A stretch of 11,151 nucleotides of DNA from Shigella phage vB_SHGBLB0004. The notes beneath the pieces were generated by a model. It saw only the letters and a program-made list of their open reading frames with translations. It searched no databases and had not been told where the DNA came from. Of the stretch, positions 11,054-11,088 are shown piece by piece; the stretch's first letter is position 1, and every line of letters starts with the position of its first letter. The stretch lies in the sequence record PV654518; one strand, given 5' to 3'. The translations under genes and the position numbers were made by a program.

Positions 11054-11083
11054 ATATTACTATATTTTATTATCTATTGTCAA
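11054..11083 (-). promoter_or_regulatory. Candidate right-end promoter driving the HTH/terminal protein/polymerase cluster
   Basis: On the minus strand: TTGACA (plus 11078-11083), an 18-nt spacer, then TAATAT (plus 11054-11059). It lies about 40 nt upstream of the HTH start and just inside the right ITR boundary. Confidence 0.45.
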
Positions 11084-11088
11084 TAGAT
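11072..11088. promoter_or_regulatory. 17-bp perfect palindrome (ATCTATTG-T-CAATAGAT), candidate operator overlapping the -35 box
   Basis: Two 8-bp arms are exact reverse complements around a central base. The minus-strand TTGACA -35 hexamer sits inside the palindrome, directly upstream of the HTH regulator gene. Confidence 0.55.

Follow-up and report, generated by a model that had tools for sequence, protein, structure and literature searches.

A perfect palindrome at the right end of an Astrithrvirus-like phage genome is proposed to serve as the operator of the phage's own first gene product, an 80-aa HTH protein that would regulate its own synthesis negatively by occluding the promoter. We assign this reading, which is built on sequence comparison, a probability of roughly 0.6. 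Recognition of the dyad by the 80-aa protein, its dimeric mode of binding and its repressive effect are inferred. Autoregulation by the first-gene HTH protein had been put forward in the initial annotation, and it is the most economical reading because the dyad accompanies the HTH gene across many lineages.

The palindrome and the right-end promoter

The window (the whole 11,151-nt stretch of DNA that was analysed) was originally described as containing a 17-bp inverted repeat at positions 11072-11088. Direct reading of this segment (ATCTATTGTCAATAGAT, that is ATCTATTG-T-CAATAGAT) showed the repeat to be real and exact, but its length had been underestimated: the symmetry takes in one more base on each side to form a perfect 19-mer with a 9+1+9 structure (Table 1). 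Two perfect palindromes with arms of at least 8 nt were found in the window, this 19-mer and the bidirectional terminator at the other end of the transcription unit.

The frequency with which such sequences arise by chance was estimated from 2000 first-order Markov simulations of the window. Palindromes with arms of at least 9 nt and a loop of at most 1 nt occurred at 0.17 per simulated genome and were present in 16% of the simulations; because of this rate, the 19-mer is only mildly unusual on a genome-wide scale. For the 136-nt non-coding right end, the expectation obtained arithmetically from the Markov count is about 0.002. The exact core TCTA-N7-TAGA, expected 0.06-0.28 times per genome, is found once each in the window, in the related contig L001 and in Acinetobacter phage Phanie, always at the right-end promoter. 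No enrichment of the half-site ATCTATTG (with up to one mismatch) was seen in the window, where it occurs 22 times against 14.9 expected, and no second full site was present. The argument against chance would thus rest on position and on conservation, with conservation as the strongest evidence.

Scanning the window for promoters identified a sigma-70-like sequence, TTGACA-18-TAATAT, on the minus strand (11083..11054). It came first in the scan listing with 10 matches out of 12, its score being tied with that of four other sites. Relatives have TACAAT, TATACT or TATAAT as the −10 element at this position, often combined with a TGn extension. Transcription is predicted to start near 11047, and the ATG codon of the regulator gene lies 39 nt downstream of the predicted promoter's −10. 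The dyad is centred on the TTGACA hexamer, some 32-33 bp upstream of the predicted start. The overlap between palindrome and −35 region, already pointed out in the initial annotation, was therefore upheld: the promoter is a good one and the position is conserved in relatives. In all dyad-bearing relatives the dyad overlaps either the −35 or the −10 and is never found upstream of the core promoter elements, an arrangement that fits repression. The window as a whole contains 45 promoter-like matches against 41 expected, and no separate late promoter stands out among them.

A role of the palindrome at the RNA level, as a hairpin or terminator, was considered and rejected. Such a role is unlikely because the predicted fold is weak (−4.6 kcal/mol, z −1.15), is not followed by a U-tract and lies upstream of the predicted start. 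An Rfam scan of the window returned no RNA family, the pRNA-like element included.

Table 1. Positions of the features discussed in the text, in the window and in related genomes.
Feature	Genome	Position	Strand	Basis or remark
Proposed operator, perfect 19-bp palindrome TATCTATTG-T-CAATAGATA	window	11071..11089	.	sequence, symmetry, conservation in relatives
Conserved operator core TCTA-N7-TAGA	window	11073-11087		within the 19-mer
−35 hexamer TTGACA	window	11078..11083	-	palindrome centre; −35-like hexamer at same position in relatives
−10 hexamer TAATAT, 18-nt spacer	window	11054..11059	-	promoter scan, relatives
Ribosome-binding site AGGGGA	window	11022..11027	-	direct reading; 6 nt 5' of ATG 11015
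80-aa XRE/Cro-C1-type HTH protein, proposed operator-binding autoregulator	window	10773..11015	-	
Rest of transcription unit (10 genes after regulator)	window	1023..10769	-	
CHAP-domain lysin (PF05257)	window	1023-1478	-	
Bidirectional terminator	window	998-1018		promoter/terminator scan; end of 11-gene minus-strand unit
Inverted terminal repeat, perfect 60 bp	window	left arm 1-60, right arm 11092..11151	.	
Possible weak second site TCTA-N7-TATA	window	119..133	+	one mismatch to core
Dyad	Vibrio K58 g2			TATCTATTGACAATAGACA
Dyad	Acinetobacter Phanie			TTCTATTGACATTAGAA
Dyad	IMG/VR L052/53, L055, L062			TCTATTGACATTAGA
Dyad on spacer/−10, not −35	L057			TCTAATTGTATTAGA; same half-sites, same spacing
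Dyad on spacer/−10, not −35	L054			TTCTAACTATGTTAGAA; same half-sites, same spacing
Dyad on spacer/−10, not −35	L051			GTCTAGTTATGGTAGAC; same half-sites, same spacing
Abutting O1/O2 dyads	L049	20-50		
Abutting O1/O2 dyads	L047	148-177		
Abutting O1/O2 dyads	L005	182-211		
ACTAGTACA(C) box	L004	~50-62		
ACTAGTACA(C) box	L005	~70-82		
ACTAGTACA(C) box	L048	~36-48		
ACTAGTACA(C) box	L046	~7360		
Repeated palindrome	L009	157-170, 2955-2972		TTATAGTACTATAA
Repeated palindrome	L010	151-164, 3118-3133		TTATTGTACAATAA

The genome and its transcription unit

The window represents the near-complete linear genome of an Astrithrvirus-like phage. Like other genomes of this group, it is linear and within the 11-12 kb range, has inverted terminal repeats and a small leftward-facing gene block, and shows the gene order regulator, putative terminal protein, PolB, gp16 ATPase, connector and phi29-type head protein. 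This order is the same in two fully annotated records, NC_048862 and OX458330; the other isolates match at the right-end arrangement. In a 2024 review (PMC11476376), the Astrithrvirus-like group is placed among the phi29-related phages.

The initial annotation had envisaged an operon comprising the regulator, terminal protein and polymerase genes. The unit proved to be larger. Between 11015 and 1023, eleven minus-strand genes follow one another closely, no gap exceeding 13 nt, and one terminator closes the series. The 80-aa protein is encoded first, followed in order of transcription by a putative terminal protein (199 aa, identified by position only), the family-B polymerase (PF03175), the packaging ATPase of gp16 type, a holin and the connector. 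Next come a 182-aa protein, the phi29-type major head protein, a 166-aa protein, the tail protein (655 aa) and, last, the CHAP lysin. The left end is taken up by three small genes on the plus strand. The proposed operator is located 2 nt inward of the right arm of the terminal repeat.

Relatives were sought through the protein database and by polymerase-based scans. The window's own clade (L001-L005, L013 and L014) is uncultured and known from metagenomes only. Judged by the polymerase, the isolates most similar to the window are Astrithrvirus-like phages with Gram-negative hosts (48-52% identity), the group comprising Salmonella phages astrithr, Astrid and assan, Acinetobacter phage Phanie, Vibrio phage K58 g2, Enterobacter phage Entb_47 and Pectobacterium phage DU_PP_III. 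Identity is approximately 52% with astrithr, Phanie and K58 g2 (50.7-51.7% for the latter two). Because of this divergence at the polymerase level, the window would fall outside the genus by the usual criteria. A polymerase scan of 185,579 species genomes yielded no close relative and only distant ones of the Lachnospiraceae type, and a megablast search of the whole window against the phage collection gave no match. The lysin of the window is of the CHAP-domain type, yet Gram-negative bacteria are the hosts of the nearest cultured relatives; in L002 the same slot is occupied by a lysin of the lysozyme family.

The 80-aa protein

The first gene downstream of the promoter had been assigned to the XRE-type HTH proteins. 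The assignment held at the level of the fold, but the protein went unrecognised by sequence-profile libraries. It forms a compact five-helix bundle in which helices 2 and 3 constitute the HTH. The Foldseek comparison agreed in kind with an XRE HTH, with E-values that are weak for so short a chain; the closest folds include the controller proteins C.EcoT38IS, C.Esp1396I, C.BclI, C.AhdI and C.Kpn2I. By sequence, no match to the 80-aa protein was obtained in Pfam, at E-values up to 10, or in PHROGs, and a PDB profile search gave sub-significant alignments to MBF1 and HipB (E 0.8-1.7). Matches to HTH_19 were limited to two remote homologues and were below threshold (E ~0.003-0.006). Since no significant match to HTH_3, HTH_19 or related profiles was found, membership in the XRE/Cro-C1 class rests on fold rather than on sequence. 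The putative recognition helix comprises approximately residues 25-35 (SEKVKAVSAFE).

A scan of viral contigs with the 80-aa protein alone returned no match. A homologous first gene is nonetheless present in every isolate genome examined, the K58 g2 copy being possibly truncated at the N-terminus; in the database records inspected, this gene is annotated as hypothetical or left unannotated. In K58 g2 (L046 7490-7660), the regulator frame has no canonical start codon ahead of the conserved helix 2, and the gene may be N-terminally truncated or mis-assembled.

Conservation of the dyad

The regulator of L001 is 79-80% identical to that of the window. The 19-mer is unchanged between the two (19/19), the aligned flanking non-coding DNA being identical at 70 positions out of 100. 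The longest block common to the window and Vibrio phage K58 g2 measures 18 nt and lies in the 19-mer. The sole change of the 19-mer in L003 and L004 (99% identical) is an A to G substitution at the inner position +3, which leaves TCTA/TAGA intact; this position varies between lineages as well. The best-kept pairs occupy positions 5-7 on either side of the centre and define the consensus TCTA-N7-TAGA.

The exact core is found 5' of the homologous HTH gene in L001, K58 g2, Phanie, L052/53, L055, L062 and S.Kent, while Entb_47, DU_PP_III, L058/59 and the L005 clade have dyads with one mismatch. Phanie keeps the dyad with a regulator that is only about 30% identical. S.Kent carries a one-mismatch form over the −35 and the exact form once over the −10, and K58 g2 has the exact core twice, at both ends, its long terminal repeat including operator and promoter. 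Altogether, the dyad is present in phages that infect five genera (Acinetobacter, Vibrio, Salmonella, Pectobacterium and Enterobacter). It keeps its register to the −35 and −10 hexamers but not its distance from the terminus. In L057, L054 and L051, the dyad lies on the spacer and −10 instead of the −35 (Table 1), which indicates that the symmetry is selected independently of TTGACA.

The lineages that were found without the dyad, L002 and astrithr, both have altered regulators. In the putative recognition helix, L002 has VPTI where the window has VKAV, and its promoter spacer contains a different perfect dyad, ACACTAT-G-ATAGTGT. The astrithr regulator has SGFEMGVNLSS in place of SAFENGRSTNI. 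When residue 29 was compared with operator type, L002 and Entb_47 fitted, but L054 (Q29, dyad kept) and astrithr (K29, dyad absent) did not. Covariation between this recognition-helix residue and the operator type is suggestive, although not clean.

An unrelated second palindrome, a perfect 15-mer (TATACTATTAGTATA), was noticed in Phanie (L045 244-258), where it includes the −10 hexamer.

Proposed circuit and alternative readings

According to the autoregulation model, a dimer of the 80-aa protein would contact the outer TCTA/TAGA half-sites, which occupy positions 5-8 on either side of the centre, in a geometry similar to that of the corresponding half-sites in the 434 operator. Since the dyad has its centre near −33, on the −35 hexamer, a dimer bound there would keep sigma region 4 out and close the promoter. 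Upon entry, the strong promoter would fire, and the first protein made would be the 80-aa regulator; this would then cap transcription of its own gene and of those for the terminal protein, the polymerase and all downstream products. Some points count against such a model. Strict self-repression of the one evident promoter of a 10-kb operon that includes the late genes is awkward for a lytic burst; escape might come through an increase in template number, through cryptic internal promoters or from a standby state in the manner of a satellite. The imperfect covariation between regulator residue and operator also weighs against the operator reading, as does the lack of a significant profile match of the protein to any HTH family, and the upstream half, ATATCTATTG, could be conserved in part as −35 context.

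The HTH protein might instead bind the dyad as an activator, or as a concentration-dependent switch of the controller-protein kind that would stimulate at low occupancy, repress at high occupancy and so time the operon. Controller proteins are indeed among the closest folds, S.Kent, Entb_47 and the L005 clade have two abutting dyads 15-16 bp apart that recall paired C-boxes, and the 18-nt spacer of the window and L001 is suboptimal. We consider this reading unlikely: the window has one dyad only, centred near −33 on a consensus TTGACA, which is an unusual position for an activator and a −35 that needs none, and where relatives have two dyads these cover the −35 and the −10, both of them repressive positions.

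Rather unlikely, too, is that the dyad is read by another protein, such as a host factor or a helper-phage regulator, and that the HTH gene has a different target. The link between protein and site is indirect. Furthermore, in the summary of Pourcel et al. 2024 given in PMC11476376, Phanie, a carrier of the dyad (TTCTATTGACATTAGAA), is a satellite that needs the helper myophage Aci01-1. However, conservation of the dyad across phages of five host genera makes a single common host or helper factor unlikely, the dyad always lies upstream of the conserved HTH gene, and no further sequence-specific DNA-binding protein was predicted among the window products scanned.

It is improbable, though it would be of consequence, that regulator and operator form the standby switch of a helper-dependent satellite, by which a linear genome capped with terminal protein would idle at low expression in a plasmid-like carrier state, tight self-repression acting on the one promoter that drives replication, virion and lysis genes. 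Full derepression would then follow the arrival of a helper or set in once genome copies outrun the repressor. A parallel exists in tectivirus GIL01, a linear plasmid prophage controlled by LexA and gp7. If true, the smallest tailed phages would possess a minimal kind of dormancy that needs no integrase.

We regard as very improbable that the element serves the genome end, either as a packaging signal or as an auxiliary site near a protein-primed origin of the kind that the NFI and Oct-1 sites provide in adenovirus. The element abuts the terminal repeat in the window and lies inside the repeat, hence at both ends, in K58 g2 and DU_PP_III. An origin element would be expected at both ends, however, and the dyad is so placed only where the terminal repeat includes it; a dyad that matches exactly or nearly so is confined to one end in the window, L001, Phanie and Entb_47, and what is kept is the register to the −35 and −10, not the distance to the terminus.

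The least credible reading, that the palindrome has no dedicated function and is merely TTGACAA, intrinsically half-symmetric, extended by chance in an AT-rich context and kept only as a promoter, can point to the recurrence of such palindromes in composition-matched random genomes, to the three of nine pairs that TTG-A-CAA supplies for free and to the lack of half-site enrichment, but it appears disfavoured by the comparative data, given that TCTA/TAGA falls outside any sigma-70 element, yet forms the best-conserved pairs across lineages, and that the dyad recurs away from the −35 in L051, L054 and L057.

Genome ends and additional sites

The ends of the window are probably not the physical ends of the genome, the 60-bp repeat being presumably truncated. 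Near-identical contigs continue 13 nt and at least 67 nt past base 11151 (...GGGGGGTCTAATCGGGGTCGTACTCCCCAACTAGTACAC...GGGTGATAGTAA|CACACCGG; L003 1-50, L004 1-100), and L005 (1-200), with sequencing adaptor on either side, shows a terminal repeat of some 150 nt. By comparison with these contigs, the true terminal repeat of the window's phage is likely to measure around 130-150 nt, each end of the window lacking some 75 nt.

Several other sequences near the termini drew attention. Two tandem ACTAGTACA(C) boxes lie at positions 71-88 of the window (ACTAGTACACTAGTACAC), in unique left-end sequence and shortly 5' of a TTGACA. The same box is kept some 40-50 nt from the termini within the terminal repeats of several relatives; a replication or packaging factor may bind to it. 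The terminal repeat itself includes the sequence CTTGACA (29-35 and 11117-11123), which is invariant in five of five close relatives amid varying flanks and is followed by no convincing −10. It could belong to the origin, or else be a second promoter that faces inward at each end.

A site with one mismatch to the operator core is found in the left-end region (Table 1), over the −10 (TATACC, 130-135) of a left-end promoter whose −35 is TTGACT (109-114). One-mismatch cores number 8 in the whole genome against 6.2 expected, so that this site is not significant alone; the same arrangement of TCTA-N7-TATA over the −10 is seen in the left promoters of L005, L013 and L014. We regard it, with low confidence, as a candidate weak second operator.

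In some relatives two dyads abut, 15-16 bp apart, one (O1) covering the −35 and the other (O2) the spacer and −10; the window has O1 only. By analogy, the O1/O2 arrangement resembles the paired operators of controller proteins.

Distant relatives with genomes of 13 kb (L006-L012, first 400 nt, and L067-L069) have polymerases that are 33-35% identical, and similar elements occur in Lachnospiraceae and Eubacteriales MAGs. In these genomes a small protein, which looks by eye to be of the ribbon-helix-helix type, replaces the HTH protein just upstream of the putative terminal-protein gene. In L009 and L010, a palindrome is repeated upstream of the small-protein gene and just after the polymerase gene (Table 1). 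The regulatory slot thus seems to be filled by a different fold in these distant relatives, and a further site seems to stand where the late genes begin.

Significance

An HTH autorepressor acting on its own promoter is a classical, textbook mechanism. What raises interest in the present case is the breadth of conservation together with the dependence of nearly the whole genome on one controlled promoter. The Astrithrvirus-like group ranks among the smallest of the tailed phages and includes at least one satellite, Phanie, which makes use of its helper's tail. Their regulation appears to be unstudied: no description of the regulator or operator of this group was found in the searchable literature, although Pourcel et al. 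2024 may comment on Phanie gp1. The comparison presented here yields a candidate regulator and a 15-bp consensus operator, TCTA-N7-TAGA, with essentially the whole genome hanging from a single promoter that is predicted to be operator-controlled. How an 11-kb phage times replication relative to assembly and lysis has thereby become directly testable.

Comparison with known systems

The initial annotation had likened the system in function to phi29 p4, with a different fold. The difference in fold stood; the functional likeness did not, since there is a single dyad on the −35, no divergent promoter and no separate late promoter visible. Protein p4 is not known to be an HTH protein, whereas the 80-aa protein is of the XRE HTH type, and no p4 appeared among the structural matches listed. 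What the two have in common is that both are phage-encoded, sequence-specific regulators (a predicted one in our case) of an early promoter in a protein-primed podophage. In PMC11476376, p4 is described as occupying four sites between divergent early and late promoters and as activating late promoter A3; the title of a reference cited there credits it with an N-hook motif. The window, in contrast, has one exact dyad rather than several sites between divergent promoters. Its late genes all lie downstream in the same unit, and no divergent gene or promoter adjoins the dyad, which lies 2 nt from the terminal repeat.

Closer analogues than p4 would be the 434 Cro/cI operators, the R-M controller proteins and the Aca autorepressors. 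The circuit would work like those of 434 and lambda Cro/cI, controller proteins and Aca, without being a member of these functional families, because the window lacks a lysogeny module, an R-M system and an acr gene. Compared with lambdoid Cro/cI (14-bp operators in phage 434), the window has one site as opposed to the tripartite OR/OL array and lacks a divergent promoter pair and an integrase; moreover, the half-site TCTA/TAGA is different and sequence similarity is below detection. Aca1, Aca2 and Aca10 differ in that the HTH gene is here the first, not the last, of its operon, which encodes replication and virion functions.

Controller proteins are encoded by the first gene of the operon that they control and bind palindromes overlapping their own −35 to autoregulate. 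The 80-aa protein resembles them (C.Esp1396I, C.AhdI, C.BclI and C.EcoT38IS) as an XRE HTH protein in the 75-85-aa range that has them among its best fold matches. It differs from them in the single dyad, as opposed to an OL/OR pair. Neither a pair of C-boxes nor linkage to a restriction endonuclease was found in the window, tandem dyads being confined to some relatives, and no evidence was found for an activating phase like that of controller proteins.

Resemblance is also evident to the Astrithrvirus-like phages themselves. While the window's clade differs from the isolates in being known from uncultured, metagenomic sources, it shares with astrithr, Astrid, assan, Phanie, DU_PP_III, Entb_47 and K58 g2 the genome size, the gene order, the inverted terminal repeats and the homologous first gene, and with most of them a related dyad.
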